Part shown: in pieces, positions 19,044-56,261 of the stretch
How the letters are laid out: each line of letters begins with the position of its first letter
Numbering within the stretch: position 1 is the stretch's first letter
From: Rhodospirillaceae bacterium
Lineage (GTDB): Bacteria > Pseudomonadota > Alphaproteobacteria > Kiloniellales > DSM-21159
Reading direction: 5' to 3'
NCBI GenBank assembly: GCA_006969625.1
Contig: CP030885.1
Location: 1,869,430-1,933,429 of the forward strand
DNA length: 64,000 bases
Made by a program: the position numbers and the translations under genes
Notes under the pieces: generated by a model
What the model saw: the letters and a program-made list of their open reading frames with translations, nothing else
What the model was told of the DNA's origin: nothing
Databases searched by the model: none

Positions 19044-19144
19044 GTGCCCTCGCTCTTTGCCCCGATACGGCTTCTTGATGTAAAGCCGATTCACATTTCT
19101 GGCAACGCGCGCCTGGCAACGCACGCCCGTCGGCGCGGGGCGGC

Positions 19145-34271: not shown

Positions 34272-35813
34272 ATGTCCGATACGATCTGGGATCTGCTCGC
34301 GCCGCATCCGGCGGACGCGAAGGCGGTCGGCGCGGCCGATCGGGAGTGGTTGACGCACGGCGGTCTGCGCGACCTGGCCGAGGCCACGATCGCCCGCCTC
34401 AACGACTTGGGCATCGGGCGCGCTGACCGGGTCGCCATCGTCCTGCCGAACGGACCGGAGATGGCGACCGCCTTCGTCGCCATGGCGTGCGGCGTCACCA
34501 CGGCGCCGCTGAACCCGGCCTACCGCGAGGAGGAGTACGACTTCTACATCACCGACCTGGGCGCCAAGGCGCTGGTCGTCGCGGCCGACTACGACGGGCC
34601 GGCGCTGCCGGTGGCGGCCAAGCACGGGGTGCGGGTCTTGCGCCTGACCAGTGCCGCCGACAAGCCGGCCGGCTGGTTCGAGCTGGCAGCCGAAGGGCAG
34701 GGCGATACCGGCACCGCCGACTCGCCCGGCTTGGCCTCCCAGGACGATGTGGCGCTGGTGCTGCACACCTCCGGCACCACCTCGCGGCCGAAGATCGTGC
34801 CGCTGCTGCAGAGCAACCTGGCGGCTTCGGCCCGGCACATCGGCGCGGCACTGCGGCTGACGCCCGAAGACCGCTGCCTCAACATCATGCCGCTGTTCCA
34901 CATCCACGGCCTGATCGCCGCGGTGCTCTCCTCGCTGGCGGCCGGCGGCTCGATCTGGTGTTCGCCGGGCTTCAACGCGCTGCAGGTCTTCGCCTGGCTG
35001 CAGGCGGCCAGGCCGACCTGGTACACCGCCGTGCCGACGATGCATCAGGCGATCCTGGCGCGCGCCGCGCGCAACAAGCAGGCGCTGGCCGAGATCGACC
35101 TGCGCCTGATCCGCTCCTCCTCCTCCTCGCTGCCGCCGCAGGTGATGACGGCGCTCGAGGAAACCTTCGGCTGCCCGGTGATCGAGAGCTACGGCATGAC
35201 CGAGGCGACGCACCAGATGGCCTCCAACCAGTTGCCGCCGGGCCAGCGCAAGCCGGGCTCGGTGGGCGTCGAGGCCGGTCCGTTGGTACGCTTGGCCGAC
35301 GAGGCCGAGAACCGCCTGATCGACTCGAGCGGCATCGGCGAGGTGGTGATCTCCGGCCCCAACGTGACGCCCGGCTACGAGGCCAACCCGGCGGCCAACG
35401 AGACCTCCTTCTTCGCGTGCGACGGTCGCCGCTGGTTCCGCACCGGCGACCAGGGCAGCTTCGACGCCGACGGCTTCCTGCGCATCACCGGCCGCCTGAA
35501 GGAGATCATCAACCGCGGCGGCGAGAAGGTCTCGCCGCTGGAGGTGGACGAGGTGCTGATGGACCATCCCGCCGTCGCCCAGTGCGTCACCTTCGCCATG
35601 CCGCACCCCAAGCTGGGCGAGGAGGTCGCCGCCGCCGTGGTGCTGCGCGAGGGCGAGAGCGCCGACGAGCGGGCGATCCGCGACTTCGCCGCCCAGCGCC
35701 TGGCCGACTTCAAGGTGCCGCGCAAGGTGATGATCCTGGAGGAGATCCCCAAGGGCGCCACCGGCAAGCTGCAGCGCATCGGGCTGGCCGAGAAGCTGGG
35801 GCTGGCGTCATGA
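34272..35813 (+). CDS. AMP-dependent acyl-CoA synthetase/ligase (AAE3 / oxalate-CoA-ligase-like)
   Basis: 513 aa. AMP-binding motif LHTSGTTSRPK, YGMTEA, GEVVISGPNVTPGY, and a C-terminal PKGATGKLQR. The substrate is not determinable from sequence alone. Confidence 0.8.
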   Translation: MSDTIWDLLAPHPADAKAVGAADREWLTHGGLRDLAEATIARLNDLGIGRADRVAIVLPNGPEMATAFVAMACGVTTAPLNPAYREEEYDFYITDLGAKALVVAADYDGPALPVAAKHGVRVLRLTSAADKPAGWFELAAEGQGDTGTADSPGLASQDDVALVLHTSGTTSRPKIVPLLQSNLAASARHIGAALRLTPEDRCLNIMPLFHIHGLIAAVLSSLAAGGSIWCSPGFNALQVFAWLQAARPTWYTAVPTMHQAILARAARNKQALAEIDLRLIRSSSSSLPPQVMTALEETFGCPVIESYGMTEATHQMASNQLPPGQRKPGSVGVEAGPLVRLADEAENRLIDSSGIGEVVISGPNVTPGYEANPAANETSFFACDGRRWFRTGDQGSFDADGFLRITGRLKEIINRGGEKVSPLEVDEVLMDHPAVAQCVTFAMPHPKLGEEVAAAVVLREGESADERAIRDFAAQRLADFKVPRKVMILEEIPKGATGKLQRIGLAEKLGLAS

Positions 35814-36802
35814 AGATCTGCGTCTTCGGCGCCGGCGCCATCGGCGGCTACATGGGCGCCAAGCTGGCCCAGGCCGGCGCCGATCTCAGCCTGGTCGCGC
35901 GCGGCCCGCACCTGGCGGCGATGCGGGACAAGGGCCTGACCCTGATCGAGGCCGGCGAGTCGACGACCGTCGAGGTCGCCGCCTCGGAGGATCCGGCCGA
36001 ATTGGGCCCGCAGGACTACGTCATCGTCACCCTGAAGGCTCACTCGGTGCCGCCGGTGGTCGAGAAGATGCAGCCGCTGCTGGGACCGGACACCACCGTG
36101 GTGATGGGCGTCAACGGCGTGCCCTGGTGGTACTTCTACAAGCTGGAAGGGCCCTACGAGAACCGCCGGCTGCGCACGGTCGACCCGGGCGACGCCCAGT
36201 GGGACGGCCTCAAGCCGGAGCGCGTGCTCGGCTGCGTCGTCTATCCGGCCGCCGAGGTCGAGGAGCCGGGCGTCATCCGCCACATCGAGGGCAACCGCTT
36301 TTCGCTCGGCGAACCGGACGGCGCGAAGAGCGAGCGGGCGCAGGCCCTGTCCAAGGCGCTCGGCGCGGCTGGCCTGAAGGCGCCGGTGCGCCCGAAGATC
36401 CGCGACGAGATCTGGGTCAAGCTCTGGGGCAACCTCTCGTTCAATCCCATCTCGGCGCTGACCGGCGCCACCCTCGACGTGCTGTGCAGCGACGAGGGCG
36501 TCGGCGGCGGCACCCGGGCGGTCGCCCGCAACATGATGCTGGAGGCCCAGGCGGTGGCCGAGGCGTTGGGCGTGAAGTTCCCGATCGACGTCGACCGCCG
36601 CATCGAGGGCGGCCGGGAGGTGGGCGCGCACAAGACCTCCATGCTGCAGGACCTGGAGCGTGGCCGGCCGATGGAGATCGACGCCCTGGTCACCGCCGTG
36701 CACGAGATGGGCGAGCTGGTCGGCGTGCCGACCCCGACCCTCGACACGGTGCTCGCCCTGGTCCGCCTGCGCGCCCGCGTGGCGGGGTGCTATCCGGAGT
36801 AG
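35810..36802 (+). CDS. panE: 2-dehydropantoate 2-reductase (ketopantoate reductase family)
   Basis: MKICVFGAGAIGGYMGAKLAQAG Rossmann motif and a C-terminal ApbA_C pattern (KTSMLQDLERGRPMEIDAL). The ATG overlaps the stop of the ligase gene. Confidence 0.8.
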   Translation: MKICVFGAGAIGGYMGAKLAQAGADLSLVARGPHLAAMRDKGLTLIEAGESTTVEVAASEDPAELGPQDYVIVTLKAHSVPPVVEKMQPLLGPDTTVVMGVNGVPWWYFYKLEGPYENRRLRTVDPGDAQWDGLKPERVLGCVVYPAAEVEEPGVIRHIEGNRFSLGEPDGAKSERAQALSKALGAAGLKAPVRPKIRDEIWVKLWGNLSFNPISALTGATLDVLCSDEGVGGGTRAVARNMMLEAQAVAEALGVKFPIDVDRRIEGGREVGAHKTSMLQDLERGRPMEIDALVTAVHEMGELVGVPTPTLDTVLALVRLRARVAGCYPE

Positions 36803-36852: not shown

Positions 36853-37860
36853 ATGCGCCGGTTTCTGCTCGCCCTCTGCCTGCCGATCGCGCTGGCCCTC
36901 GCCCCCGCCGCCGCGCCGGCCGAGCCTGTCGCGCCGCGCGACCGGGCGGTGCCGGAGGGCACCGAAGGGCTGAGCGGCGAGGAGATCTACTGGCGCGCGC
37001 TGGAGGCGGCGGAGGCGGGCGACAGCCTGCGCTACGAGCGGCTGCTGGCGGCGGCGGCGGACAAGGGCGACCGCTTCGCCGGCCAGGACCTCGTGCGCCT
37101 GCACTACCTGCGCGGCGCGCCGGATTGGCGGGAGACGGCGCTCCGCTACCTGCGCCCCATCCCCCGCGACCCGCTCGTCGACGAGCAACACCTCTACTGG
37201 CTGGCGGCGGCGGGCGAGCGCCGGGAGCCGCCGCTGCCGCAGGCCCAGACCGACCTCTGGTACCGGATCGCCGCCTGGTCCTCGACGGATCTGCTGTGGC
37301 CGAACCGCGCCGACCTGCAGACCAAGCTGGCGCGCGCCGAAGAGCGCTGGCTGCTCGGCGGCGAGATCTCCTGGCGCTACCGCGAGCTGGTCGGCGAGGC
37401 GCTGCGCCTGCGGCGCGCCGACGGCGCCCGCCTGTACGCGGCCAGCCGCACGGTCTGCGACGCCCCCCTCGAGGACGCCGAATTGCTGTGCATGCAGTAT
37501 CTCGAAGCGGCCGCGGACAAGGATCATGCAAAAGCGCAGTTCGCCTACGCATCCAGGGTCCTGGATGCCCCACCGTACACACACCACGATACGGTCATCG
37601 TCTGGGCGGTCGGCTTGCTTTGTCGCGCCGGACAGAGCGGGATTGCCGAAGCCACTATTCGATTGGCACAGGCAGTCTTGGAACTTGAGGTGGCGCCGTC
37701 GCGGTTTCGTCTACAAGCCTACCTGCAACTAGAAGCGCTAGGTGAACCGCCTGCAGACCTCGGCGGGTTGCAGGATTTGCTGCGGATGTCTCTTACGAAC
37801 GAGCAGCTCAAATGGCTCGCGGACATGGCGGCGTGGGGCCGGTCTGCACCGGGCTGTTGA
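36853..37860 (+). CDS. array protein A1: secreted helical (Sel1/TPR-like?) protein, class I
   Basis: 335 aa. Sec signal MRRFLLALCLPIALALAPAAAPA. Collinear with A2/A4 (TDLWYRIAAW, GGEISWRYRELVGEA, CMQYLEAAADKDHAKAQF, LLCRAGQSG). Four Cys in the mature part, including a C-terminal Cys. Confidence 0.75.
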   Translation: MRRFLLALCLPIALALAPAAAPAEPVAPRDRAVPEGTEGLSGEEIYWRALEAAEAGDSLRYERLLAAAADKGDRFAGQDLVRLHYLRGAPDWRETALRYLRPIPRDPLVDEQHLYWLAAAGERREPPLPQAQTDLWYRIAAWSSTDLLWPNRADLQTKLARAEERWLLGGEISWRYRELVGEALRLRRADGARLYAASRTVCDAPLEDAELLCMQYLEAAADKDHAKAQFAYASRVLDAPPYTHHDTVIVWAVGLLCRAGQSGIAEATIRLAQAVLELEVAPSRFRLQAYLQLEALGEPPADLGGLQDLLRMSLTNEQLKWLADMAAWGRSAPGC

Positions 37861-37890
37861 GTGCGGGCGCGACGTTCCGGCCCATCCAGA

Positions 37891-39282
37891 TCAAGCCACC
37901 GGATCTCCCCCGCAGTGCCGGGCGATCTCGCGCTTCAGTTCCTCCATCGCCGCCAGGGCTTCGGCGATCGCGGCGTTGAGCTCTTCGATCTGCTCCGTCA
38001 GCTCGCGCCGCCGTTGCTGCCATGCTTCGAGTGCCGCAGAGGTCTCGGCGATGTCCGGGTCCAGATAGGTCGACGAGGGTCCCGGTTGCGGGCGAAACGG
38101 CTCTTCCTTCTCTGACTGTTTACGGCGTTGCAGGGCCTCGACGCCACGCCCGACGACGACGGCCAGCCGGCCGTAGGGGTGCCTCGACAGCAGCCAGAGC
38201 CCGAGGTCGATCGCCAATTCCAGCGCACCCAAGGCCGCTTGCGTTCGTCGGTAAGCTTGCCAAAGCCTCTCGAGCTCCTGTTCGAGCCGCGTTACCTCTT
38301 TCTGAGCTTTGTCGAGCAGTTCGGGCAGGCCTTTCTTCTTTTCCAGCGCCGTCTCGTATTCGCCCTCGCGCACGCGCAGTTCGTGCCGCAGGGCGCGGCA
38401 TTTCGCAGCACGGTCCGGCCCGTCCGGATGCTGGTCGCCGGGCGGCTTCGGCTTGACGCCGCCGGAGCCCGGCGCGTCGGGCTGCTCCGGCGTGCCCGGT
38501 TCCTCGGGCGGCGCCGGCGGGTTGGGCGTTGGCTCGGGTGTCGGATGTGGCTCCGGCGTTGGCTCCGGCTCCGGCGGCGTGTCGGCGTCCCGTTCGGGCG
38601 CCTGGAGTGGCAGGCCGGCGGCTTGGGCGAGGCTGCGCAGGGTCGGACCGTCGGGAGTGACGAGTCCGTCGACCATCAGGCCGTGCGCCTGCTGGAAGGC
38701 GCGGATGGCGGCGTCGAGGGCCTCGGTGACCTGCCCGCTCGGCTCGTGCGGCGGCTGCCAGTGGTACCAGCCGGTCCCCGCCAGGGCCTTCTGCAGGCCG
38801 ACCACGTCGCGCCGGGCGTTGCCGGGGGTGTTGACGGGAGCGTTGCCGGGGCGCCGGGAGCCGGCCGCCTGCGGCGCGGCGCCGCCGGTCGAAACGCTGC
38901 GGCCGACGGGCCCGCGCGGGTGCAGGTCCTGGGGCTTCGGCTCGGGGGCGAACCAGTCGAGCCCGCGGCGGCCCTCGGCGTACTCGGGCTTGGGCGCGGT
39001 CTCGCGCTGCCGGCCGGTAGCGTCCCGCTGGACCTTGCCGCTGCCGTAAACCTGGGCGTACTGGCGCCGGACGTACTGAAAATAATCCTCGTCCTGGTCC
39101 TGCCAGTACAGCGGGTCGGCCACCAGGCCGGTCAGCGCCCGCTCGATCGGCGTCGGTTCCTCGGGCCGCCGCCGGCGCCGTGCGGCGCGCGGGGCATAGG
39201 GATCGTAGGGATCGTCGGGATCGCCGCGCGAACGGCCACTGGAATCGGGGGCGAGGGGAGATCGAAAGCTGCCGCGGGCCAT
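37891..39282 (-). CDS. array protein B1: conserved N-region + PG_binding_1-like segment + PEPT linker + class I variable helical C-module
   Basis: Start favoured at MARGSFRSP (ATG 39282, GGAG 8 nt upstream); the track ORF begins at GTG 39333. RRDVVGLQKALAGTGWYHWQPPHEPSGQVTEALDAAIRAFQQAHGLMVDGLVTPDGPTLRSL resembles a peptidoglycan-binding repeat. The C-terminal 170 aa have heptad-like, charged coiled-coil character. Confidence 0.75.
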   Translation of the reverse strand: MARGSFRSPLAPDSSGRSRGDPDDPYDPYAPRAARRRRRPEEPTPIERALTGLVADPLYWQDQDEDYFQYVRRQYAQVYGSGKVQRDATGRQRETAPKPEYAEGRRGLDWFAPEPKPQDLHPRGPVGRSVSTGGAAPQAAGSRRPGNAPVNTPGNARRDVVGLQKALAGTGWYHWQPPHEPSGQVTEALDAAIRAFQQAHGLMVDGLVTPDGPTLRSLAQAAGLPLQAPERDADTPPEPEPTPEPHPTPEPTPNPPAPPEEPGTPEQPDAPGSGGVKPKPPGDQHPDGPDRAAKCRALRHELRVREGEYETALEKKKGLPELLDKAQKEVTRLEQELERLWQAYRRTQAALGALELAIDLGLWLLSRHPYGRLAVVVGRGVEALQRRKQSEKEEPFRPQPGPSSTYLDPDIAETSAALEAWQQRRRELTEQIEELNAAIAEALAAMEELKREIARHCGGDPVA

Positions 39283-39428
39283 GGTCCTGCTCCGGGTCGG
39301 TGGCACAGAGGGCATGGACCATAGCAAGAACACTCATCCAAGAGAAGAACAAAAAGGCATCAACTTGCGCGGCGGGAATCCGGCCGTCGGCGGCAGTTGG
39401 CCGGTGGTGTCGCGCGTGCGCTTGTCGT

Positions 39429-39464
39429 CTGGCAGAGCATGGCGCTGCGACCTATAGTGGCGGC
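39429..39464 (+). promoter_or_regulatory. conserved A-gene upstream architecture CTGGCA-N18-TATAGT-N6-ATG
   Basis: Read directly from the sequence. Same layout as upstream of A1, A3 and A5. A duplicate lies at 44295..44330. Confidence 0.45.
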
Positions 39465-40508
39465 ATGCTTCGCACGCTCGCCCGGAGCCTGGCACCGTTG
39501 ATCGCGGCCGTGTGGCTGGCCGCGGACCTTGGCGTGCCCGCGCAGGCCGAGCAAACCACGCCGCAGCCCGAGCCGCCGCGCGACCAAGTGGTGCCGGAGG
39601 GGATCGAGGGGCTGACGGCCGAGGAGATTGCTGAGTTAGCGATCGAGGCGGCACAGGCCGGGGACACCGAGCGCTATCTCGAACTCCTGGCGGCAGCGGC
39701 CTACGCTGGCGATGCACACTCCGCACGTCAGATGGCGCGCTTGGCATATGGGCGCCAGTGGCCGGGCTGGCCAGAGACGGCGCTTCGCTACGTCCGACCT
39801 ATTGCCGATGGTGCTGTTCTGAAGGCTGAATCCTTCTATTGGTTGGGATTCGCCGGGGAGAACGCCATCCCGTCTCTGCCCGAGGAACAAACCGATCTCT
39901 GGTACCGGATCGCCGCTTGGCACATGGCGAACAGCTACGGGGACAGCCGTGCCGACCTGCAAGTGCTTCTCGACCATTATGGAGAGGACTGGCTGAGCGG
40001 CGGCGAGGTTTCGTGGCGGTTTCGCGAGCTGGTGGGCGAAGCCTACGCGTTTCAGGCCAAGAGCGGGTCCTGGTTCTACGAGCAAGCTCTCAGCTATTGC
40101 AGCATGGCCCTCGAGCATGCAGGGATCCTCTGCCTGGACTATTTGGAGGTTGCGGCGCGAAAGGACCACCCGCGCGCGCAGTTCGACTTCGCTTGGCAGG
40201 TGTTGAACGCCTCGCCGGAGACAGCGTCGGAATCACGTCGGGCATGGGCGATGTCGCTCTTGTGTTTGAGCGGACAAAGCGGGGTCCGTGAAGCCACCAT
40301 CCTGCTGGCCCGAAAGATCGTCGAGAACGATCTCGGAGAAGGCCACTTCCGACCGCAAGCCTACTATCAGATTGGATTGATCGAGGAGCGAAATGAAGAG
40401 CTGGAGGAGCTTTTTCTGGAAATCGATAAGCGATTAAGTCACAATGAGCGATGGCAGTTGGAATACTCATATAAAAACGCCTTTCCCATTTCATGCTCAC
40501 ATCGCTGA
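39465..40508 (+). CDS. array protein A2: secreted helical protein, class I (identical to A4)
   Basis: 347 aa. Signal MLRTLARSLAPLIAAVWLAADLGVPAQA. Collinear with A1. Noticeably more AT-rich at its 3' end. Confidence 0.75.
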   Translation: MLRTLARSLAPLIAAVWLAADLGVPAQAEQTTPQPEPPRDQVVPEGIEGLTAEEIAELAIEAAQAGDTERYLELLAAAAYAGDAHSARQMARLAYGRQWPGWPETALRYVRPIADGAVLKAESFYWLGFAGENAIPSLPEEQTDLWYRIAAWHMANSYGDSRADLQVLLDHYGEDWLSGGEVSWRFRELVGEAYAFQAKSGSWFYEQALSYCSMALEHAGILCLDYLEVAARKDHPRAQFDFAWQVLNASPETASESRRAWAMSLLCLSGQSGVREATILLARKIVENDLGEGHFRPQAYYQIGLIEERNEELEELFLEIDKRLSHNERWQLEYSYKNAFPISCSHR

Positions 40509-40529
40509 CGCTGGACCGATGGCCTGCGC

Positions 40530-41375
40530 TCAACTCTGTGGCGGTGCAGGTGGCCGGCCGCCACAGTTCCGAGCAATCTCTTCCTGTAGTCGGTCTATGG
40601 CTGCCCGAGCTTCAGCGATCTCGGCATTCAGGCTTTCGATCTCGTCTGTGAGATCACGCCGTTCCTTCTGAAGCCTCTGCAGCCTCTCGGAGCTCTGCAC
40701 GATTTCGGGGTCAATCGGGCTGGGGGCACTCGGATTCCTGCGCCCCGCGTTCGCATGCTCCTTTAGCGCGCGCCGAAGCTCACGCATGCCGCGATGGACC
40801 GAGGTTGCTAGGAACCCGAGGGGGTGACGCCTGATCAACCACATGCCGAGTTCTATGGTTAACTCGATTGTAGCCTTCGTAGCCGCTTGCTGACGCTCCT
40901 TCTCCCAAAGCTGCGAAATCTTCTCTTCTAACGCTGTGATTCGTCCTTGAAGATCTTGTAGCGCTTCGGGCAGGCCTTTCTTCTTCTCCAGCGCCGTCTC
41001 GTATTCGCCCTCGCGCACGCGGAGTTCGTGCCGCAGGGCGCGGCATTTCGCAGCTCGGTCCGGCCCGTCCGGATGCTGGTCGCCGGGCGGCTTCGGCTTG
41101 ACGCCGCCGGAGTCAGGTTCTTCCGGTTCCTCGGGCTCCTCTGGCGTTGGCGTCGGCGTTGGCTCCGGCTCCGGCGGCGTGTCGGCGTCCCGGTCGGGCG
41201 CCTGGAGGGGCAGGCCGGCGGCTTGGGCGAGGCTGCGCAGGGTCGGGCCGTCGGGAGTGACGAGTCCGTCGACCGTCAGGCCGTGCGCCTGCTGGAAGGC
41301 GCGGATGGCGGCGTCGAGGGCCTCGGTGACCTGCCCGCTCGGCTCGTGCGGCGGCTGCCAGTGGTACCAGCCGGT
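40530..41375 (-). pseudogene. orphan B module B2': 5'-truncated B copy (partial PG-binding segment + linker + class I variant C-module)
   Basis: Homology to B1 starts abruptly at GTGWYHWQPPHEPSGQV. The frame is open up to a TAA at 41475-41477, but there is no ATG/GTG/TTG until GTG 41018 (VREGEYE...). The N-terminal 180 codons and the RBS of full-length B are absent. Confidence 0.7.
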
Positions 41376-41435
41376 GCCGGCCCGCAGGCTCTTCGAGCCT
41401 GCATCCGTGAAAGGTTTGGGACCGCGCGAACGCGG
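41376..41435. repeat. 60-nt double-hairpin element at the 5' breakpoint of orphan B2' (duplicate at 46242..46301)
   Basis: GCAGGCTC-TTC-GAGCCTGC (41384-41402) and GGGACCGCG-CGAA-CGCGGTCCC (41418-41439). B-like sequence (CCTTCTGCAG..) resumes briefly on the far side, so this looks like an insertion into B coding sequence. Confidence 0.6.
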
Positions 41436-41518
41436 TCCCCCGCCTTCTGCAGCCCGAGCAGGACGCGGCGTGCTTTAGTGGCGGCGCTGGCTAGGGGCTG
41501 GCGCGCTGCGGGCGGGCC

Positions 41519-41554
41519 CTGGCGGGGCGGCGGCGAAGCGCCTAGTCTGGTGGC
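41519..41554 (+). promoter_or_regulatory. conserved A-gene upstream architecture CTGGCG-N18-TAGTCT-N6-ATG
   Basis: Read directly from the sequence. A duplicate lies at 46385..46420 upstream of A5. Confidence 0.4.
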
Positions 41555-42646
41555 ATGCGCTGCCAAGTCGCCCTGTTGCTGTGCGTGTGTCTCGCGCTGG
41601 TGCTCGCGCCGGTGCCGGCGCAGGCGGCGCCGATGCAGGAGCGGGGCGCAGGGCAGGACGCCGAGGCGCCGCCCGCGTGGGATTGGCCGCCCGGCCCGAG
41701 CGTGATCTTCGATCCGACGACCGGCGAGACCCTGCGCATGCCGGACGAGCTGCGCGGCCTGCCACCGGAAGAGGTGTATGCGTTTTCCGAGGAGCTGCGC
41801 GCCGAAGGCGACGAGCGGCGAGCGGATACGCTCTTCGCCTTCGCCGGCTACATGGGATACCCTTTCGCGGCCGAGTGGCTGGCGCGTTTGGCTTTCGGTG
41901 AAGACTGGCCGGACGACCCGTCCCGCGTCTTCTACTTCGCCCATCTGGCGACCGAGCGTACCAACATGGCGAGGCGTGCCCACTTCTGGCTGGCGCTTGC
42001 CGGCGGCCATCCGGACATCGGCCTGGCGCCGGAGCAGCTCGAGATCTGGACCTTGGCGGCGGCGGCGGCCATGACGCGGAGTGACCAAGAGCTGTCTCAC
42101 CTCGAGCGCCGCCTCGAGCTGTTGCGCAGCGCACTTGGAGATTACTCCGAGTTGTTGGCGCCCACGGAGAGCGCCGCGCGAGACCTGCGGGCCAGTTTCG
42201 ACGCTGGACCGCACGCGCTTCTGGAGACGTACGCGCCCATCTGCGAAGGGCCTGACCTGCCCGGCCGTGACGTATTCTGTGCCGACATTTTTCTCTTCTT
42301 CCATGGCGACGATCCAAGGGCGATGCGACTGGGGAGCTTTGCGCTTTCGAACTTGGATCTTCGGTTCGAGCAATGGTTCCGCATCAGCAAAGCGCAGCGC
42401 CTGCTCTGTAAGCTGGCCTTGGAGGGTGACTCCGAGGCTGCGTATCGCCTCGGGATCCTGTTCCCCCATCATCAGTCCGCTAGCGGTCCGCAATCTCTCG
42501 ACGTCGCCGTGCTCCTTGCCCGTGCCGCACCTAGACTGCCAGCCGCAGCACCCTTGCTCGAAAACCTGATGGCCGACATGAGCGCGCGCGATAGGAGGCA
42601 AGTCGCGGTCTTGGCCGATGTCGATCGACCCCCGATCCGGTGTTAG
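41555..42646 (+). CDS. array protein A3: secreted helical protein, class II
   Basis: 363 aa. Signal MRCQVALLLCVCLALVLAPVPAQA. The first 100 or so aa are identical to A5 apart from one substitution, then the sequence is homologous but diverged. Motifs YAPICEGPDLPGRDVFC, RLLCKLALEGD, and a C-terminal Cys. Confidence 0.75.
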   Translation: MRCQVALLLCVCLALVLAPVPAQAAPMQERGAGQDAEAPPAWDWPPGPSVIFDPTTGETLRMPDELRGLPPEEVYAFSEELRAEGDERRADTLFAFAGYMGYPFAAEWLARLAFGEDWPDDPSRVFYFAHLATERTNMARRAHFWLALAGGHPDIGLAPEQLEIWTLAAAAAMTRSDQELSHLERRLELLRSALGDYSELLAPTESAARDLRASFDAGPHALLETYAPICEGPDLPGRDVFCADIFLFFHGDDPRAMRLGSFALSNLDLRFEQWFRISKAQRLLCKLALEGDSEAAYRLGILFPHHQSASGPQSLDVAVLLARAAPRLPAAAPLLENLMADMSARDRRQVAVLADVDRPPIRC

Positions 42647-42710
42647 CTGTCTCGAAATCCGGCCCACGCGCCGTGCACGCGACCGCAGGGTTAGCTAAGC
42701 GCACGGCCGG

Positions 42711-44148
42711 CTACGCGCAGTGCCGGCGGATCAGCTCTTCCAGCGCCTCGATGCGCGCCGTCACCTCTGCCTTCCACGCTCGCTCGCGCTCCACCTCGTC
42801 CATGAGCCGAGCCTCCTCGGCCTTTGCCTCCAGATAGGCGTCCCAGAGGGCCCGCAGGTCGCCCGACGCCGCGAGGAGCTCCGGGTCCGGATCCGGCAAG
42901 TCGGGGCTTCCGCGGGGCCGGTCGGGCGCCTCCCGATCATCGCGCCGATCCCGCCTGTCGCGGTCGCCTCCGCCGGGTCGGCTGCGACCCCGGCCGTAGC
43001 GCCAGGACAAACCTTCCAGAATCCATTCTCCTACTTCCTCTGCCAAGTCTTTAAGCATAGAGTCTCGCCGCTTTTCTTGTACCTCTTTCAGTGTTTCTCG
43101 ATATTCCACGACGATATCTGATATTTTCCTCCCTTGTTCGATCAGCGCTTTGTCGAGGCGCTGGATTTCCTCCTCGGCCACCTCGAGCACGATGCGCAGG
43201 CGGGCGAGATCGCGGCGCGACTGCGCGCACTTGGCCGCGTCGGGGTCGTCCGGCGTGTCGGGGTCGTCCGGCGTGTCGGGCTCCTCCGGCTCCTCGGGCG
43301 GCGTTGGCGTCGGCTCCGGCGTCGGCTCCGGCGTCGGCTCCGGGGCCGGCGTCGGCTCCGGCTCCGGCTCCGGCGGCGTGTCGGCGTCCCGGTCGGGCGC
43401 CTGGAGGGGCAGGCCGGCGGCTTGGGCGAGGCTGCGCAGGGTCGGGCCGTCGGGAGTGACGAGTCCGTCGACCGTCAGGCCGTGCGCCTGCTGGAAGGCG
43501 CGGATGGCGGCGTCGAGGGCCGCGGTGACCTGCCCGCTCGGCTCGTGCGGCGGCTGCCAGTGGTACCAGCCGGTCCCCGCCAGGGCCTTCTGCAGGCCGA
43601 CCACGTCGCGCCGGGCGTTGCCGGGGGTGTTGACGGGAGCGTTGCCGGGGCGCCGGGAGCCGGCCGCCTGCGGCGCGGCGCCGCCGGTCGAAACGCTGCG
43701 GCCGACGGGCCCGCGCGGGTGCAGGTCCTGCGGCTTCGGCTTGGGCGCGAACCAGTCGAGCCCGCGGCGGCCCTCGGCGTACTCGGGCTTGGGCGCGGTC
43801 TCGCGCTGCCGGCCGGTGGCGTCGCGCTGGACCTTGCCGCTGCCGTAGACCTGGGCGTACTGGCGCCGGACGTGCTGAAAATAATCCTCGTCCAGGAGCG
43901 AGTTGCTCTGCAACTCGCTCCAGAACGTCGATTCTCGACCGAGGTCACTCGGTCCGGTCCTGCCAGTACAGCGGGTCGGCCACCAGGCCGCTCAGCGCCT
44001 GCTCGATCGGCGCCGGCTCCTCGGGCCGCCGCCGGCGGCGCCTTGCGGCGCGCGGGGCATAGGGATCGTAAGGGTCGCCGGTCGGATCGCCGGTCGGATC
44101 GCCACTGGAATCGGGGGTGAGGGGAGAACGGAAGCTGCCGCGGGCCAT
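42711..44148 (-). pseudogene. array protein B3 (class II C-module), reading frame split by a 62-nt insertion
   Basis: The N-terminal fragment 43945..44148 (MARGSFRSPLTPDSS...LYWQDRTE*) and the C-terminal ORF 42711..43913 lie in different frames. Alignment with B1/B5 shows an extra segment between ..AATAATCCTCGTCC and GGTCCTGCCAGTAC.. . The C-fragment could still be expressed from its internal ATG (MQSNSLLDEDYFQ). Confidence 0.7.
43894..43955. repeat. 62-nt double-hairpin insertion (MITE/REP-like) interrupting B3
   Basis: GGAGCGAGTTGC-TCT-GCAACTCGCTCC (43895-43921) and GACCGAG-GTCA-CTCGGTC (43937-43954). Absent from the equivalent position of B1 (about 39085) and B5 (about 48720). The net +61 nt causes a frameshift. 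Confidence 0.75.
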
Positions 44149-44330
44149 GGTCCTGCTCCGGGTCGGTGGCACAGAGGGAAGCGACCATAGCAAGAACACT
44201 CATCCAAGAGAAGAACAAAAAGGCATCAACTTGCGCGGCGGGAATCCGGCCGTCGGCGGCAGTTGGCCGGTGGTGTCGCGCGTGCGCTTGTCGTCTGGCA
44301 GAGCATGGCGCTGCGACCTATAGTGGCGGC

Positions 44331-45374
44331 ATGCTTCGCACGCTCGCCCGGAGCCTGGCACCGTTGATCGCGGCCGTGTGGCTGGCCGCGGACCTTGGCG
44401 TGCCCGCGCAGGCCGAGCAAACCACGCCGCAGCCCGAGCCGCCGCGCGACCAAGTGGTGCCGGAGGGGATCGAGGGGCTGACGGCCGAGGAGATTGCTGA
44501 GTTAGCGATCGAGGCGGCACAGGCCGGGGACACCGAGCGCTATCTCGAACTCCTGGCGGCAGCGGCCTACGCTGGCGATGCACACTCCGCACGTCAGATG
44601 GCGCGCTTGGCATATGGGCGCCAGTGGCCGGGCTGGCCAGAGACGGCGCTTCGCTACGTCCGACCTATTGCCGATGGTGCTGTTCTGAAGGCTGAATCCT
44701 TCTATTGGTTGGGATTCGCCGGGGAGAACGCCATCCCGTCTCTGCCCGAGGAACAAACCGATCTCTGGTACCGGATCGCCGCTTGGCACATGGCGAACAG
44801 CTACGGGGACAGCCGTGCCGACCTGCAAGTGCTTCTCGACCATTATGGAGAGGACTGGCTGAGCGGCGGCGAGGTTTCGTGGCGGTTTCGCGAGCTGGTG
44901 GGCGAAGCCTACGCGTTTCAGGCCAAGAGCGGGTCCTGGTTCTACGAGCAAGCTCTCAGCTATTGCAGCATGGCCCTCGAGCATGCAGGGATCCTCTGCC
45001 TGGACTATTTGGAGGTTGCGGCGCGAAAGGACCACCCGCGCGCGCAGTTCGACTTCGCTTGGCAGGTGTTGAACGCCTCGCCGGAGACAGCGTCGGAATC
45101 ACGTCGGGCATGGGCGATGTCGCTCTTGTGTTTGAGCGGACAAAGCGGGGTCCGTGAAGCCACCATCCTGCTGGCCCGAAAGATCGTCGAGAACGATCTC
45201 GGAGAAGGCCACTTCCGACCGCAAGCCTACTATCAGATTGGATTGATCGAGGAGCGAAATGAAGAGCTGGAGGAGCTTTTTCTGGAAATCGATAAGCGAT
45301 TAAGTCACAATGAGCGATGGCAGTTGGAATACTCATATAAAAACGCCTTTCCCATTTCATGCTCACATCGCTGA
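44331..45374 (+). CDS. array protein A4 (identical to A2), class I
   Basis: The translation is identical to 39465..40508. Confidence 0.75.
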   Translation: MLRTLARSLAPLIAAVWLAADLGVPAQAEQTTPQPEPPRDQVVPEGIEGLTAEEIAELAIEAAQAGDTERYLELLAAAAYAGDAHSARQMARLAYGRQWPGWPETALRYVRPIADGAVLKAESFYWLGFAGENAIPSLPEEQTDLWYRIAAWHMANSYGDSRADLQVLLDHYGEDWLSGGEVSWRFRELVGEAYAFQAKSGSWFYEQALSYCSMALEHAGILCLDYLEVAARKDHPRAQFDFAWQVLNASPETASESRRAWAMSLLCLSGQSGVREATILLARKIVENDLGEGHFRPQAYYQIGLIEERNEELEELFLEIDKRLSHNERWQLEYSYKNAFPISCSHR

Positions 45375-45395
45375 CGCTGGACCGATGGCCTGCGC

Positions 45396-46241
45396 TCAAC
45401 TCTGTGGCGGTGCAGGTGGCCGGCCGCCACAGTTCCGAGCAATCTCTTCCTGTAGTCGGTCTATGGCTGCCCGAGCTTCAGCGATCTCGGCATTCAGGCT
45501 TTCGATCTCGTCTGTGAGATCACGCCGTTCCTTCTGAAGCCTCTGCAGCCTCTCGGAGCTCTGCACGATTTCGGGGTCAATCGGGCTGGGGGCACTCGGA
45601 TTCCTGCGCCCCGCGTTCGCATGCTCCTTTAGCGCGCGCCGAAGCTCACGCATGCCGCGATGGACCGAGGTTGCTAGGAACCCGAGGGGGTGACGCCTGA
45701 TCAACCACATGCCGAGTTCTATGGTTAACTCGATTGTAGCCTTCGTAGCCGCTTGCTGACGCTCCTTCTCCCAAAGCTGCGAAATCTTCTCTTCTAACGC
45801 TGTGATTCGTCCTTGAAGATCTTGTAGCGCTTCGGGCAGGCCTTTCTTCTTCTCCAGCGCCGTCTCGTATTCGCCCTCGCGCACGCGGAGTTCGTGCCGC
45901 AGGGCGCGGCATTTCGCAGCTCGGTCCGGCCCGTCCGGATGCTGGTCGCCGGGCGGCTTCGGCTTGACGCCGCCGGAGTCAGGTTCTTCCGGTTCCTCGG
46001 GCTCCTCTGGCGTTGGCGTCGGCGTTGGCTCCGGCTCCGGCGGCGTGTCGGCGTCCCGGTCGGGCGCCTGGAGGGGCAGGCCGGCGGCTTGGGCGAGGCT
46101 GCGCAGGGTCGGGCCGTCGGGCGTGACGAGTCCGTCGACCGTCAGGCCGTGCGCCTGCTGGAAGGCGCGGATGGCGGCGTCGAGGGCCTCGGTGACCTGC
46201 CCGCTCGGCTCGTGCGGCGGCTGCCAGTGGTACCAGCCGGT
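45396..46241 (-). pseudogene. orphan B module B4' (identical to B2')
   Basis: The ORF 45396..45884 translation is identical to 40530..41018. The upstream in-frame B-like sequence lacks a start codon, as in B2'. Confidence 0.7.
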
Positions 46242-46420
46242 GCCGGCCCGCAGGCTCTTCGAGCCTGCATCCGTGAAAGGTTTGGGACCGCGCGAACGCG
46301 GTCCCCCGCCTTCTGCAGCCCGAGCAGGACGCGGCGTGCTTTAGTGGCGGCGCTGGCTAGGGGCTGGCGCGCTGCGGGCGGGCCCTGGCGGGGCGGCGGC
46401 GAAGCGCCTAGTCTGGTGGC

Positions 46421-47512
46421 ATGCGCTGCCAAGTCGCCCTGTTGCTGTGCGTGTGTCTCGCGCTGGTGCTCGCGCCGGTGCCGGCGCAGGCGGCGCCGAT
46501 GCAGGAGCGGGGCGCAGGGCAGGACGCCGAGGAGCCGCCCGCGTGGGATTGGCCGCCCGGCCCGAGCGTGATCTTCGATCCGACGACCGGCGAGACCCTG
46601 CGCATGCCGGACGAGCTGCGCGGCCTGCCACCGGAAGAGGTGTATGCGTTTTCCGAGGAGCTGCGCGCCGAAGGCGACGAGCGGCGAGCGGATACGCTCT
46701 TCGCCTTCGCCGGCTACATGGGGTATCCGCCCGCTGCGTCAAACCTGGCGCGTTTGGCTTTCGGTGAAGATTGGCCGGACGACCCGTCGCGCGTCTTCTA
46801 CCTCGCCCATCTGGCGACCGAGCGCAGCACGCTACCCAGCTCTGCCTATTTTTGGCTCGCGATTGCCGGCGCCCATCCCAAGATCGCTCTCGGACCGGAG
46901 CAAATCGAGATCTGGACGCTCGTCACCGCTGCCTCCATGGCGTATCCAGATCAGGAGCCGGCGTTTCTCGATGAAGCGCTCGGTCGTCTGAGCCGGTGGC
47001 TCGGCAACTACACCGAGCTGCTGCGCCCGGTTGAGATGACAACTCGGCGCCTGCAGGCCAAGTTCGACGAAGGTTCAGCGGCGCTCGTGGACGCCTATGC
47101 GCCCGTCTGCGAGGGGCCCGACCTGCCCGGCCGGGACGTGTTCTGCGCCAACGTTTTCCTATTCGATCACGGTGACGATCCGAAAGCGATGCGCTTCGGC
47201 AGTTTCGCGCTCTCGAACCTCGATTTGCGCTTCGTTGCCTGGTACCGGATCAATGCAGCGCAAAGGCTACTTTGCAACCTGGCGAATGGCGGCGATATCG
47301 AGGCTCTGCGGCGGTTGGCACGGCTGTACCAATATCATCAGCCGGCCAGTCGGCCGCATCCGAGAGATGTTGCCGTCCTGTTTACCCGCGCCGCACCGAC
47401 CATGCCGAGCGTTGCCTCAGCGCTCGAGAAGCTGCTGGCAGACATGAGCGCGGAAGACCGGACCCAGGTGGAAGCTCTGGCAGCGACCGACGGATTGCCG
47501 CCGAGGTGCTAA
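46421..47512 (+). CDS. array protein A5: secreted helical protein, class II
   Basis: 363 aa. Shares the signal peptide and first 100 or so residues with A3 (one substitution, A/E), then diverges while staying collinear (YAPVCEGPDLPGRDVFC, RLLCNLANGGD, C-terminal Cys). Confidence 0.75.
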   Translation: MRCQVALLLCVCLALVLAPVPAQAAPMQERGAGQDAEEPPAWDWPPGPSVIFDPTTGETLRMPDELRGLPPEEVYAFSEELRAEGDERRADTLFAFAGYMGYPPAASNLARLAFGEDWPDDPSRVFYLAHLATERSTLPSSAYFWLAIAGAHPKIALGPEQIEIWTLVTAASMAYPDQEPAFLDEALGRLSRWLGNYTELLRPVEMTTRRLQAKFDEGSAALVDAYAPVCEGPDLPGRDVFCANVFLFDHGDDPKAMRFGSFALSNLDLRFVAWYRINAAQRLLCNLANGGDIEALRRLARLYQYHQPASRPHPRDVAVLFTRAAPTMPSVASALEKLLADMSAEDRTQVEALAATDGLPPRC

Positions 47513-47564
47513 CCGAGCCTTCGCCGCCGATTGACCTGATCGACGGAGTAAGCGGTGTGGTGGA

Positions 47565-48917
47565 TTAGGTACACTGCTCGCGGATCAGTTTCTCCAAAGC
47601 GTCGATACGCCTTACGATGTTGCTCTTTCTCCGCCTTTCGCTCTCCAGCTCGCGAGCGAGCTTCGCGTGCTCCGCTTTCGCTTCCCGGTAATCGTCCCAT
47701 AAGCCCCGCAGCTTGATCGAAGCTTCGAGGAGTTCCGGGTCCGGCTCTGGCAAATCGGGCACATCCTCGGTGTCGCCCCGGCGCTTGCCGTCGTTGCGTT
47801 CGTCTGGAGACCTGGTGTCTCTGGGGCGGCGGCGCCCGATTTTCAATCTTTGGAGAAAAAGCCCGAGCGCATACTCTGCAGCATCTTCGAGGATAGATCC
47901 TTTAGCCTTTTCGACTGCGTCATTGTAAGCAATTTGGAATTCTTCTGCTTTGTCCCATACGGTTTCCGCCTGCTCTGCTTGCATGGATTCGAGGCGCTGG
48001 ATTTCCTCCTCGGCCACCTCGAGCACGATGCGCAGGCGGGCGAGATCGCGGCGCGACTGCGCGCACTTGGCCGCGTCGGGGTCGTCCGGCACGTCGGGGT
48101 CGTCCGGCGTGTCGGGCTCCTCCCGCTCCTCGGGCGGCGTTGGCGTCGGCTCCGCGTCTGGCTTTGGCTCCGGGTTCGGCGTTGGCGTCGGCGTTGGCTC
48201 CGGCTCCGGCGGCGTGTCGGCGTCCCGGTCGGGCGCCTGGAGTGGCAGGCCGGCGGCTTGGGCGAGGCTGCGCAGGGTCGGGCCGTCGGGCGTGACGAGT
48301 CCGTCGACCGTCAGGCCGTGCGCCTGCTGGAAGGCGCGGATGGCGGCGTCGAGGGCTTCGGTGACCTGCCCGCTCGGCTCGTGCGGCGGCTGCCAGTGGT
48401 ACCAGCCGGTCCCCGCCAGGGCCTTCTGCAGGCCGACCACGTCGCGCCGGGCGTTGCCGGGGGTGTTGACGGGAGCGTTGCCGGGGCGCCGGGAGCCGGC
48501 CGCCTGCGGCGCGGCGCCGCCGGTCGAAACGCTGCGGCCGACGGGCCCGCGCGGGTGCAGGTCCTGGGGCTTCGGCTCGGGCGCGAACCAGTCGAGCCCG
48601 CGGCGGCCCTCGGCGTACTCGGGCTTGGGCGCGGTCTCGCGCTGCCGGCCGGTAGCGTCCCGCTGGACCTTGCCGCTGCCGTAAACCTGGGCGTACTGGC
48701 GCCGGACGTACTGAAAATAATCCTCGTCCTGGTCCTGCCAGTACAGCGGGTCGGCCACCAGGCCGCTCAGCGCCCGCTCGATCGGCGCCGGTTCCTCGGG
48801 CCGCCGCCGGCGCCGTGCGGCGCGCGGGGCATAGGGATCGTAGGGATCGTCGGGATCGCCGCGCGAACGGCCACTGGAATCGGGGGCGAGGGGAGATCGA
48901 AAGCTGCCGCGGGCCAT
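47565..48917 (-). CDS. array protein B5: full-length, class II variable C-module
   Basis: MARGSFRSP start at 48917 with the same GGAG context. The N-terminal 260 or so aa are nearly identical to B1. The C-module shares AAKCAQSRRDLARLRIVLEVAEEEIQRL with B3, then diverges. Ends ..LIREQCT. Confidence 0.75.
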   Translation of the reverse strand: MARGSFRSPLAPDSSGRSRGDPDDPYDPYAPRAARRRRRPEEPAPIERALSGLVADPLYWQDQDEDYFQYVRRQYAQVYGSGKVQRDATGRQRETAPKPEYAEGRRGLDWFAPEPKPQDLHPRGPVGRSVSTGGAAPQAAGSRRPGNAPVNTPGNARRDVVGLQKALAGTGWYHWQPPHEPSGQVTEALDAAIRAFQQAHGLTVDGLVTPDGPTLRSLAQAAGLPLQAPDRDADTPPEPEPTPTPTPNPEPKPDAEPTPTPPEEREEPDTPDDPDVPDDPDAAKCAQSRRDLARLRIVLEVAEEEIQRLESMQAEQAETVWDKAEEFQIAYNDAVEKAKGSILEDAAEYALGLFLQRLKIGRRRPRDTRSPDERNDGKRRGDTEDVPDLPEPDPELLEASIKLRGLWDDYREAKAEHAKLARELESERRRKSNIVRRIDALEKLIREQCT

Positions 48918-49082
48918 GGTCCTGCTCCGGGTCGGTGGCACAGAGGGCATGGACCATAGCAAGAACATTTGCCCGAGAGAAGAACAAAAAGTGTATATTC
49001 AGGCATTGCCGCCGATGCCTTGCGGCACGCCGGCCGGCGTCCGACACTGTCGCTCCCGCTGGCGGTGCAGGAGGCGAGGCCA

Positions 49083-49937
49083 ATGCGCAGTGCTGGCCCC
49101 GTGCGGGCCGTCCACGCCGTGTCCACCGGCCGCGGCTGGCAGCACCGCGAGCATCGCCGCGGCAGCCGCCTGCCGCGGCTGATCTGGGCGCTCGCCTCGC
49201 GAAGCTGGATCGAAGTGCCGATCTACTTCTTCGTGGTCGAGCACCGCGAAGGCCTGGTGCTGTTCGACACCGGCCTCGACCCGGCGATCGCAAGCGACCC
49301 GCACTACGTCGCCGGCCCGATCGGCCGCTTCTTCCTGCGCCGGCTGTTCCGAATCCGCATCGCACCGGAAGACGGTTTGGCGCCGCAACTGGCCGCGCTG
49401 GGCTACGCGGCGGAGCAGGTCCGCACGGTCGTCGTCTCGCACCTGCACTTCGACCATATCGGCGGGATCGCCGCCGTGCCGCAGGCGGAACTGCTCGTCG
49501 GCGAGGCGGAGTGGGCGCAGCTTTCGGGACCGCACCCGGAGCGCGACTTCATCCTGCGCGAGCACATCGCGTTGCCGGGGGCCAGGTGGCGGCAAGTCGG
49601 CTTTGCGCCGAGCGACGATCCGCTGCTCGCCGACTTTGCCGGCACCTACGACCTGCTGGGCGATGGCACCCTGGTCCTGCTGCCGACACCCGGGCACACC
49701 CCGGGTTCGCTATCGATGCTGCTGCGCGCGCCCGGTTGGCCGCCGCTGCTGTTCGTCGCCGACCTGACCTACGAAGCCGCCTTGCTGCTGCAGGACCGCC
49801 TGCCCGGCATCGGCGACCCGGCGCGGCTGCGCGCCTCCTTCGCCCAGGTGCGTGCCCTCAAGGCGGCGCTGCCGGACCTCGTCATCCTCGCCGCGCACGA
49901 CCCGGCGGCCGGGGCGGCGCTGCGCGCGGCGACCTGA
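49083..49937 (+). CDS. MBL-fold metallo-hydrolase (N-acyl-homoserine-lactonase-like)
   Basis: Start at MRSAGPVRAV. Metal motif VVSHLHFDHIGG, later TPGHTPGS and AHD. Size and motifs resemble AiiA/AttM-type lactonases, but substrate is not inferable. Confidence 0.75.
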   Translation: MRSAGPVRAVHAVSTGRGWQHREHRRGSRLPRLIWALASRSWIEVPIYFFVVEHREGLVLFDTGLDPAIASDPHYVAGPIGRFFLRRLFRIRIAPEDGLAPQLAALGYAAEQVRTVVVSHLHFDHIGGIAAVPQAELLVGEAEWAQLSGPHPERDFILREHIALPGARWRQVGFAPSDDPLLADFAGTYDLLGDGTLVLLPTPGHTPGSLSMLLRAPGWPPLLFVADLTYEAALLLQDRLPGIGDPARLRASFAQVRALKAALPDLVILAAHDPAAGAALRAAT

Positions 49938-55595: not shown

Positions 55596-56261
55596 TCAGT
55601 CGGCGTCGACCAAGCCGGCGCCGGCGCCGGTGGCGCGCGAGGTCTCGCTCGCCGGCACAAGACTAAGATGCACCAGCGTCTGTACGCGGGTCCATACGCC
55701 CTGGTCCACCGACACGCCTTCGTCCAGGACCGGTAGGAGCGCCCGCCGTCTGCCCTGCTCGCGGGGGCTGGCGCAAGCGGCCTGGATGAAAGGTAATGGT
55801 GCCTCCAGGTCGGCCCAGGCGCCGGCGACCAGGTAGGCTGCGCCGTTGCGGCAGAGCGCCGTGCCGTCGTCCCAGCGCAACAGCAGGCCCGGCCCCTTCG
55901 CTGCGCTGTAGACGCCGAAGGCGGCCAGCAGCAGCAACGGCTGCACGACCGGTTCGAAGCTCAGAGGGCCGAGCCCGGCACGCAGCAGGTCGGCGGCGCT
56001 CGGCCCCGAGTGCCAAGCCGCCGGCGGCTTCGCTCCGTCTCCGGCGAGATGCGGCGTCGGCGCGGCGGTCAGACGGCCGAGCCCGGTCTCGCCGGCGGAC
56101 CAAGCCTCCAGCTCGGCCAGGACGACCGGTACGCCGTCAAAGCCCTGCGTGCACAGCCAGGCGGCGGAGGCACCCAGATCCTCGGCATAGCCTTGCGGCA
56201 CCCCACAGCCGAGGGCGGCGCGCCGCAGGTAGGTCTCGACCTCGTTGAGCGACAGCCTCAT
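55596..56261 (-). CDS. DUF3726-like hypothetical protein
   Basis: Start at MRLSLNEVETYLRRAALGCGVPQGYAEDLGASAAWLCTQGFDG (ATG complement 56259-56261), overlapping the upstream stop by 4 nt. The family call is from memory of this N-terminal pattern and is tentative. Confidence 0.55.
   Translation of the reverse strand: MRLSLNEVETYLRRAALGCGVPQGYAEDLGASAAWLCTQGFDGVPVVLAELEAWSAGETGLGRLTAAPTPHLAGDGAKPPAAWHSGPSAADLLRAGLGPLSFEPVVQPLLLLAAFGVYSAAKGPGLLLRWDDGTALCRNGAAYLVAGAWADLEAPLPFIQAACASPREQGRRRALLPVLDEGVSVDQGVWTRVQTLVHLSLVPASETSRATGAGAGLVDAD

Follow-up and report, generated by a model that had tools for sequence, protein, structure and literature searches.

We analysed a 64,000-nt stretch of a Rhodospirillaceae bacterium genome (contig CP030885.1 of GCA_006969625.1; hereafter the window, whose numbering is used throughout unless another contig is named), in which genes of two families, here called A and B, are set tail to tail over some 12 kb. 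By our estimate there is a probability of about one half that this locus is a chromosomal array of polymorphic effector/immunity-type cassettes, with B as candidate effector and A as its periplasmic neutraliser. The reading is suggested by an asymmetry of export between the two proteins, a mosaic of homogenised and saturated segments, co-variation of A with B, orphan stubs, the distribution of both families, the preferential decay of B and precedents among known systems. It rests on architecture. The original prediction had recognised in the locus the logic of polymorphic toxin/immunity systems; the genetic signature of such systems was borne out by the mosaic of synonymous divergence, by the relatives, by a Mantel correlation and by B decay, and it is from this signature that we infer a toxic B and a protective A.

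A mosaic array of convergent gene pairs

Open reading frames (ORFs) and frame-by-frame translation gave the order A1> <B1 A2> <B2' A3> <B3 A4> <B4' A5> <B5 between panE (35813-36802) and a metallo-beta-lactamase-fold gene (48969-49937), as proposed earlier for the ten genes at 36853-48917. The stop codons of facing A and B genes are 21-64 bp apart. The gene order of the proposed five-fold array thus stands, but its pairs are not five independent ones: the array consists of A1-B1 followed by a tandemly duplicated unit of ~4.87 kb, A(I-b) B' A(II) B. In self-BLAST, 38469-42586 matched 43268-47452 over 4.2 kb with E-values effectively 0, so the repeat structure is not due to chance. The features are listed below by position and strand.

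36853-37860, plus strand: A1, 335 aa, class I-a, predicted secreted Sel1-like-repeat (SLR) protein (ORF, signal peptide, AlphaFold2 (AF2) solenoid, SLR matches in Foldseek)
37891-39282, minus strand: B1, 463 aa, intact and full-length (ORF)
38653-38808, minus strand: PG_binding_1 domain of B1 (aa 159-210), PF01471, E=1.4e-9, 38 bits against a cutoff of 23
37894-38409, minus strand: class I-a C-module of B1 (aa 292-463), helices modelled with a predicted local distance difference test (pLDDT) of ~90
39283-39464, no strand: divergent B1/A2 intergenic region; ~75 bp upstream of B are conserved before B1, B3 and B5
39465-40508, plus strand: A2, 347 aa, class I-b, predicted secreted SLR-like protein (translation, class comparison)
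40530-~41405, minus strand: B2', orphan stub in which the second half of PG_binding_1 is followed by the linker and a C-module of class I-b
41555-42646, plus strand: A3, 363 aa, class II-a, predicted secreted SLR-like protein (ORF; ortholog in L003)
42711-44148, minus strand: B3, of full length, class II-a C-module, interrupted near codon 63
43895-43955, minus strand: twin-hairpin insertion in B3, 61 bp, bringing a TGA and a frameshift (alignment, DNA fold)
44331-45374, plus strand: A4, identical copy of A2
45396-~46271, minus strand: B4', identical copy of the B2' stub
46421-47512, plus strand: A5, 363 aa, class II-b, predicted secreted SLR-like protein (ORF)
47565-48917, minus strand: B5, 450 aa, intact and full-length, class II-b C-module
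41800-43177, no strand: variable cassette II-a, from about codon 80 of A3 to its end plus the B3 C-module (sliding identity, synonymous divergence)
~46666-48013, no strand: variable cassette II-b, counterpart of II-a
39283-48991, no strand: two tandem copies of the ~4.87-kb unit (self-BLAST, identity profile)

An alignment of the two units in 100-bp windows showed 99-100% identity between 39283-41780 and 44149-46650, a fall to 45-85% from ~41800 to ~43177 and a return to ~98% in the 5' part of B. Synonymous divergence (dS, Nei-Gojobori) was 0-0.03 in the flanking arms versus 0.8-2.7 (saturated) in the cassette, in which omega (dN/dS) was 0.2-0.5. This step from about zero to saturation argues for cassette exchange, not fast local divergence, and suggests that the cassettes are old, selectively maintained alleles lying between recently homogenised arms. 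Positive selection as the source of the mosaic was considered and rejected, synonymous sites being saturated too. With an omega of 0.2 between A3 and its ortholog in the Logan contig L003, A is under purifying selection.

Judging from these profiles, the exchangeable unit comprises the 3' part of A and the 3' third of B, tail to tail. Its arms are the 5' two-thirds of B and, in relatives, the first ~45 codons of A. Paralogues of A in two relatives are 64-93% identical over their first 45 aa and 24-39% over the remainder, which points to a second homology arm carried by A. Orphan C-terminal cassettes are available for recombination, as B2' and B4' here and as stubs in the related contigs L008 and L010. 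The stubs of the window begin inside the peptidoglycan-binding domain and have lost the N-terminal 166 aa; they have no start codon before the first cysteine (Cys) of the C-module, and over 240 bp (41143-41382) B2' still matches full-length B at 98% identity. The DNA of A2/B2' is 100% identical to that of A4/B4'. As a side observation, G+C is 0.58-0.60 in the variable cassettes (40001-41000, 45001-46000 and 47001-48000) and ~0.70 elsewhere.

Pairwise identities bore out the two classes of A proteins and the two classes of C-modules described earlier. Among A proteins, A1 and A2 share 45% and A3 and A5 71%, with 24-27% between classes; among C-modules, B1 and B2' share 53%, as do B3 and B5, with 25-31% between classes. 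B1 and B5 are 98% identical over aa 1-234 and 25-53% identical afterwards, so that the near-identical N-terminal region noticed in the original prediction was confirmed as near-identical, its extent being about 235 aa plus a linker and not about 260 aa. Two marks of polymorphic toxins were thus found, a sharp junction between a conserved N-region and a hypervariable C-module in B and a co-varying adjacent partner in A, though linkage alone could contribute to the latter.

The convergent neighbours are of matching class in all five pairs (I-I, I-I, II-II, I-I, II-II), as first noted, and divergent A/B neighbours are mismatched in three of four cases. Class co-variation also holds across strains: the identities of A proteins and of their cognate C-modules were correlated with a Mantel r of 0.64 in 11 pairs drawn from 4 organisms, a value reached in 3 of 100000 permutations. 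A smaller set of 7 pairs gave r=0.71 (15 of 5040 permutations).

B3 had been taken for an unbroken gene, which the 61-bp insertion at 43895-43955 contradicts, as it brings a TGA and a frameshift. The insertion folds, as DNA, into two perfect hairpins (-27.5 kcal/mol, z=-7.95) and resembles a miniature element of the repetitive extragenic palindrome (REP) or miniature inverted-repeat transposable element (MITE) type; no second copy was found in the window or in any fetched locus. A promoter-like CTGGCA-18-TATAGT occurs at 39429-39458 and 44295-44324 and ends 7 nt before the annotated ATG of A2 and A4, a distance so short that it would imply a leaderless transcript or another start codon. Terminator scans were negative or at background level.

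Predicted properties of the A and B proteins

The Sec-type signal peptides and helical nature that had been read from the A sequences were both upheld. The signal peptides reach a 12-aa hydropathy of 2.2-3.4, and the AF2 model of A1, computed from a 14-sequence alignment (pLDDT 86.8, predicted template-modelling score 0.80), contains 16 paired helices. Its top Foldseek matches, at probability 1.0, were the SLR proteins c5321, LpnE, Oxalobacter Sel1 proteins, HcpC and LceB, with HcpC (1ouv) among the top five; the PA5088 (5jjo) and PA5087 (5jkp) immunity proteins of type VI secretion systems (T6SS) stood lower in the list. Neither Pfam nor NCBIfam matched any A, and the PF08238 threshold was not reached. 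The suspected Sel1 or tetratricopeptide-like repeat was recovered by other means, namely by the model and by the A profile, which reached bona fide Sel1 proteins with multi-stretch matches at E 1e-11 to 1e-4. A is therefore best described, as far as the models go, as a predicted divergent, Sec-exported SLR solenoid. Four Cys are invariant in A members only 25% identical, in a fixed pattern of two 11 residues apart, one in mid-protein and one at or next to the C-terminus.

B consists of a disordered N-terminal region of ~155 aa, a PG_binding_1 domain, a Pro-rich linker and an exchangeable C-module of ~170 aa. The peptidoglycan-binding domain suspected in its mid-region was matched by PF01471 in B1, B3 and B5 (38 bits, gathering cutoff 23), and the half-domain left in the stub scored 30.5 bits. 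The first 155 residues are rich in Arg, Pro and Gly (R/P/A/G 49%), and the model has a pLDDT below 50 over aa 1-150, only the C-module being modelled with confidence. There, long helices span residues 289-316, 319-367, 371-392 and 409-457 of B1 (pLDDT ~90), and the C-module is predicted to form an antiparallel coiled-coil hairpin whose two ends each carry a Cys. Exactly two Cys are present in each class, at position 4 and ~6 residues from the end. A transmembrane or pore-forming C-module was considered and rejected, with no hydrophobic 19-mer above 1.34 in any C-module.

Neither protein had been placed in a named family, and both can now be placed in part, the mid-region of B in PF01471 and A among divergent SLR solenoids. 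Scans of NCBIfam, PHROGs and PADLOC returned for A and B only the peptidoglycan-binding domain (endolysin-type) and coiled-coil noise. Pfam gave no ColM (PF14859), pore-former (PF01024) or nuclease killing domain in B, and no trafficking module (signal peptide, two-partner secretion (TPS), PAAR, LXG, MuF etc.) was found in B with Pfam, NCBIfam, PHROGs or PADLOC. Searched against PDB sequences, the profiles of A and B and the N-terminal region of B yielded a weak match to a repeat protein and nothing else of significance, and the B N-terminus had no relative there.

Both partners had been thought to be extracytoplasmic, which holds for A with its Sec signal peptide and not for B, whose N-terminus reaches a 12-aa hydropathy of at most 0.9 against 2.2-3.4 in A and has no signal peptide. 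The pair is thus asymmetric: A has a signal peptide and four Cys, and B is without a signal peptide yet carries PF01471 and a conserved Cys pair. Such an asymmetry is the pattern of effectors acting in another cell's periplasm.

A linker motif, (K)PPGDQHPD or PGDH(N/Q)PDEP, precedes the first C-module Cys in several classes and organisms (window 38410-38470 and 41020-41080, the B linkers of L008 and L002, and P0003, a further B of this genome). It may be a junction, recombination or processing motif.

Relatives and the decay of B

The A profile was run in an exhaustive search of 1.84 billion representatives, which yielded about 13 full-length clusters of A; B comprises 4 clusters. A third homologue search with a 14-member A profile gave no further proteins, and scans of metagenome contigs for one B motif and one A motif found nothing. 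Matches of the B profile in genome contigs were rejected as family members, sharing generic PG_binding_1 only (a phage region and a transglycosylase fusion). In the 4.62-Mb genome itself, outside the window, lie a third intact full-length B of a different C-module class (P0003) and a sixth A (P0012).

Tail-to-tail A/B pairs occur in at least four related uncultured organisms, adjoining panE and moaA, with at least six C-module classes. Their loci are arranged as follows.

L002 (JGI metagenome): AMP-binding, panE, A(P0008)> <B class I
L014+L015+L001 (one organism): TctA, AMP-binding, panE, A(P0013)> <B(P0004, class III), DLH, OpuAC
L008/L009: moaA, A(P0014)> <stub of a new class, A(P0010)> <B class I
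L010/L012 (1.2-Mb ENA contig): moaA, then three A> <B pairs
L017: A(P0016)> <B of yet another class
L016: A, an 18-codon B remnant, A

Beside panE the organism of L014/L015/L001 has a single pair, against five in the window. Between this organism and L002, panE is 88% identical, and the cassettes of the two differ in class at this same site. In L010/L012 every B is N-truncated, frameshifted or internally deleted. Decay is asymmetric overall: all 13 copies of A were intact, against 3 of the 11 copies of B that could be assessed (Fisher p=2e-4). Intact A genes beside B genes that are often broken are expected if A protects on its own.

The panE-locus B of the L014/L015/L001 organism carries a frameshifting 13-bp tandem duplication after the 'PLYW' codons, present in two independent samples (L001 ~9940-9960 and L015 ~3190-3210) and no more than ~10 nt from where the 61-bp insertion lies in B3 of the window. 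The two events may mark a hot spot of disruption. In L010, a stretch of ~250-350 bp (~8760-9000) that separates the 3' end of A(P0009) from that of the second B has 16-33% G+C in a genome of ~70% G+C.

The remaining genes examined in the window belong to metabolism or transport. Neighbours in L001, L008, L010 and L014 are likewise metabolic, and no secretion-system, phage, recombinase or lysis gene was seen around the related loci, except for transposase genes of the IS481 (1507-2478) and IS630 (16958-19104) families, which flank the moaA-linked array of L010 at 3-7 kb. An ORF of ~590 codons in the window (56258-58042, minus strand; third-position G+C 0.91) lacks a Pfam family and shows no relationship to A or B; an overlapping plus-strand ORF (55797-56483), also without a Pfam match, is perhaps not a gene.

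Proposed effector/immunity cassettes, alternative readings and known systems

A conserved 5' part, an exchangeable 3' module, a co-varying neighbour, orphan modules, different alleles at one site and survival of the partner would together make up the signature of a polymorphic effector/immunity system. In the mechanism that we propose, B would leave the producer independently of Sec, either by bacteriocin-like release or through a contact-dependent apparatus encoded elsewhere, and reach the periplasm or cell wall of a related cell, where its peptidoglycan-binding domain would hold it. The disulfide-closed hairpin would then do the damage or the recognition, and cognate A would bind this hairpin in the periplasm and so neutralise B. 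Homologous recombination across the two arms would swap both halves jointly and displace old cassettes as orphans, immunity genes being kept even when the effector decays.

Several points weigh against an effector/immunity locus. The C-module has no transmembrane segment in any class and no enzymatic signature, being a plain coiled-coil hairpin, and its Foldseek matches were generic hairpins only (SMC arms, EnvC, RipA; all E>=0.08), an uninformative outcome that was to be expected from the low-confidence B model used. Neither the C-module nor the B N-terminus could be assigned to any toxin, bacteriocin or defence family by Pfam, NCBIfam, PHROGs, PADLOC or PDB sequence searches. As the original prediction had it, no secretion-system, recombinase or phage gene was seen in the 64-kb window, nor was a lysis gene, and the alphaproteobacterial-type LexA box GTTC-N7-GTTC is absent upstream of B. 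Linkage alone predicts co-variation of adjacent segments, which is therefore no proof of interaction. With most B copies disrupted, the system may for the most part be inactive; moreover, the family is tiny and known only from one genome and uncultured relatives.

A more specific proposal is that the hairpin is a new non-enzymatic, peptidoglycan-tethered periplasmic effector or identity tag with a Sec-independent exit and a co-evolved Sel1-like receptor or neutraliser. We put this forward tentatively and consider it rather doubtful in full; if true, it would be a previously unseen class of interbacterial recognition or antagonism system.

It is unlikely, though worth weighing first among the alternatives, that the B hairpin and the A solenoid form a non-lethal, strain-specific binding pair for kin recognition or for cell-cell or wall adhesion, akin to IdsD/IdsE, a mismatch having behavioural effects. 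A non-enzymatic coiled-coil hairpin would suit such a pair, SLR solenoids are protein-binding scaffolds (PMC7108748), and the classes co-vary and differ between strains at one locus. That B is often lost whereas every one of the 13 A copies is intact agrees better with protection than with an identity tag that works both ways, and the lack of a linked transfer apparatus in the window and the several different pairs in one genome also speak against it.

A role in envelope housekeeping appears equally unlikely. B would here be a coiled-coil protein tethered to peptidoglycan and A its SLR partner, the two organising or regulating cell-wall enzymes like EnvC-, NlpI- or PodJ-type proteins, and both would have been duplicated and diversified, say through pressure from phages or predators. 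PF01471 in B, a periplasmic A, weak structural matches to EnvC and RipA coiled-coil arms and the location of the loci among ordinary metabolic genes are compatible with this. But B has neither signal peptide nor membrane anchor, and confinement to few relatives (about 13 clusters among the 1.84 billion representatives), copy number and class that vary between close relatives, orphan stubs and broken B genes, and saturated dS in cassettes between identical arms are atypical of housekeeping genes.

Silent-cassette antigenic variation, in which full-length B would be an exposed wall-associated antigen with a tail replaced by gene conversion from the B' stubs while A chaperones or docks that tail, is considerably less probable still. 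The stubs do lack a promoter and the 5' part of the gene, they have a homology arm in common with the expressed copies, and the arms are homogenised; yet there are only one or two stubs per locus, those of the window are identical, no recombinase or conversion-promoting element lies nearby, the host organisms are uncultured, and the antigen model does not require an A that is variable and always intact. Neutral tandem duplication and decay of a functionless pair, with a class pattern that merely records duplication history, would explain the evident recent 4.87-kb duplication and the several B pseudogenes, but is the least probable reading and already disfavoured, given the abrupt jumps of dS from ~0 to saturation within one duplicated unit, an omega of 0.2-0.5, the invariance of four A and two B Cys in 25%-identical members and the recurrence of the architecture at two chromosomal sites in several organisms.

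If the effector/immunity reading is right and the pair works, effector modules would gain a new member, a coiled-coil hairpin closed by a disulfide and carried on a peptidoglycan-binding stalk, and Sel1-like immunity proteins a new dedicated branch, and whole tail-to-tail cassettes would be exchangeable between two homology arms, one per gene. A genes that persist where B has repeatedly been lost would give a clean case, in nature, of immunity outlasting its toxin. Were the pair not toxic, A and B would be compact candidates for a strain-specific code of recognition between periplasmic proteins.

A convergent, extracytoplasmic partner had seemed unusual, which does not hold in view of colicin M/Cmi, colicin Z and Sel1-type T6SS immunity. 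In pore-forming colicins the immunity gene is likewise opposed to that of the toxin. Most cmi genes are found downstream of the colicin M gene and oriented against it, and Cmi is a periplasmic protein that has two structural Cys (PMC5821083); the colicin Z genes cza and czi also run in opposite directions (PMC6668396). Peptidoglycan-binding adhesion domains of the PGB1 type occur in polymorphic toxins (PMC3482391). The survey of these toxins required co-directional gene pairs (PMC3482391, methods), so that a convergent layout like that of A and B would have been hidden from it, and convergent effector/immunity layouts have likely been overlooked by screens with this demand.

With colicin M/Cmi, the A/B pairs share a modular effector (in B a candidate one) without signal peptide, with an unstructured N-terminus and a C-terminal functional module, a partner gene immediately downstream on the opposite strand whose product is periplasmic with conserved Cys, and a family diversified by recombination (PMC5821083, PMC6668396). 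They differ in that B has no ColM, pore-forming or nuclease domain and its central domain binds peptidoglycan instead of an outer-membrane receptor. A is a soluble SLR solenoid of 340 aa by prediction, not a small membrane-anchored protein. The A/B locus is chromosomal and multi-copy with orphan stubs, and there is no lysis gene in the window and no SOS box upstream of B.

Proteus mirabilis IdsD and IdsE have co-varying variable regions and bind only their cognate partner in a strain-specific manner, and their genes are co-directional in a T6SS-linked operon that encodes both as membrane proteins. The likeness to A and B lies in two proteins with co-varying, strain-specific variable regions, cognate-only binding being a feature of Ids; no homology of IdsD/IdsE to A or B was found. 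The B' copies recall pilE/pilS silent cassettes in being promoterless, partial and flanked like full-length B, but the window has two identical stubs rather than many different silent copies. Like Helicobacter HcpB and HcpC, A is a predicted Sec-exported, disulfide-stabilised SLR solenoid; unlike them, it has four Cys in a fixed pattern, not one pair per repeat, and is always paired with a B C-module.

CdiA-CT/CdiI and Rhs-CT/RhsI loci are also known with orphan cassettes. As in A/B arrays, displaced 5'-truncated orphans keep a homology arm there, and close relatives hold different alleles at one locus. The conserved N-part, the hypervariable C-part past a junction and the co-varying adjacent partner follow the same general scheme (PMC3482391). 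In contrast to these systems, A is convergent and not co-directional downstream, and has a homogenised 5' arm of its own. B is only ~450 aa long, without TPS, filamentous haemagglutinin (FHA), Rhs/YD, PAAR or VENN/PxxxxDPxGL elements, and its C-module is predicted to be a coiled-coil hairpin, not an enzyme of the nuclease/deaminase type.

Sel1E neutralises VgrG4 in K. pneumoniae (PMC7108748), and this pair and P. aeruginosa PldB with PA5086-5088 resemble A/B in an effector without signal peptide and an SLR protector (both putative in A/B), tandem paralogous SLR immunity genes and export of the partner, here A, to the periplasm; PA5088 and PA5087 are themselves among the structural matches of A. 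Differences are that no vgrG, hcp, PAAR or adaptor gene lies in the window, that B has no MIX/FIX-type or other T6SS marker domain, and that A falls below the Pfam Sel1 threshold. No paper describing A, the B N-terminus or the C-module was found in our literature search, and all three stand outside any curated family. What is new is the A and B families; what is known is the polymorphic effector/immunity logic, with colicin M/Cmi as the closest layout and the T6SS SLR proteins as the closest immunity fold.

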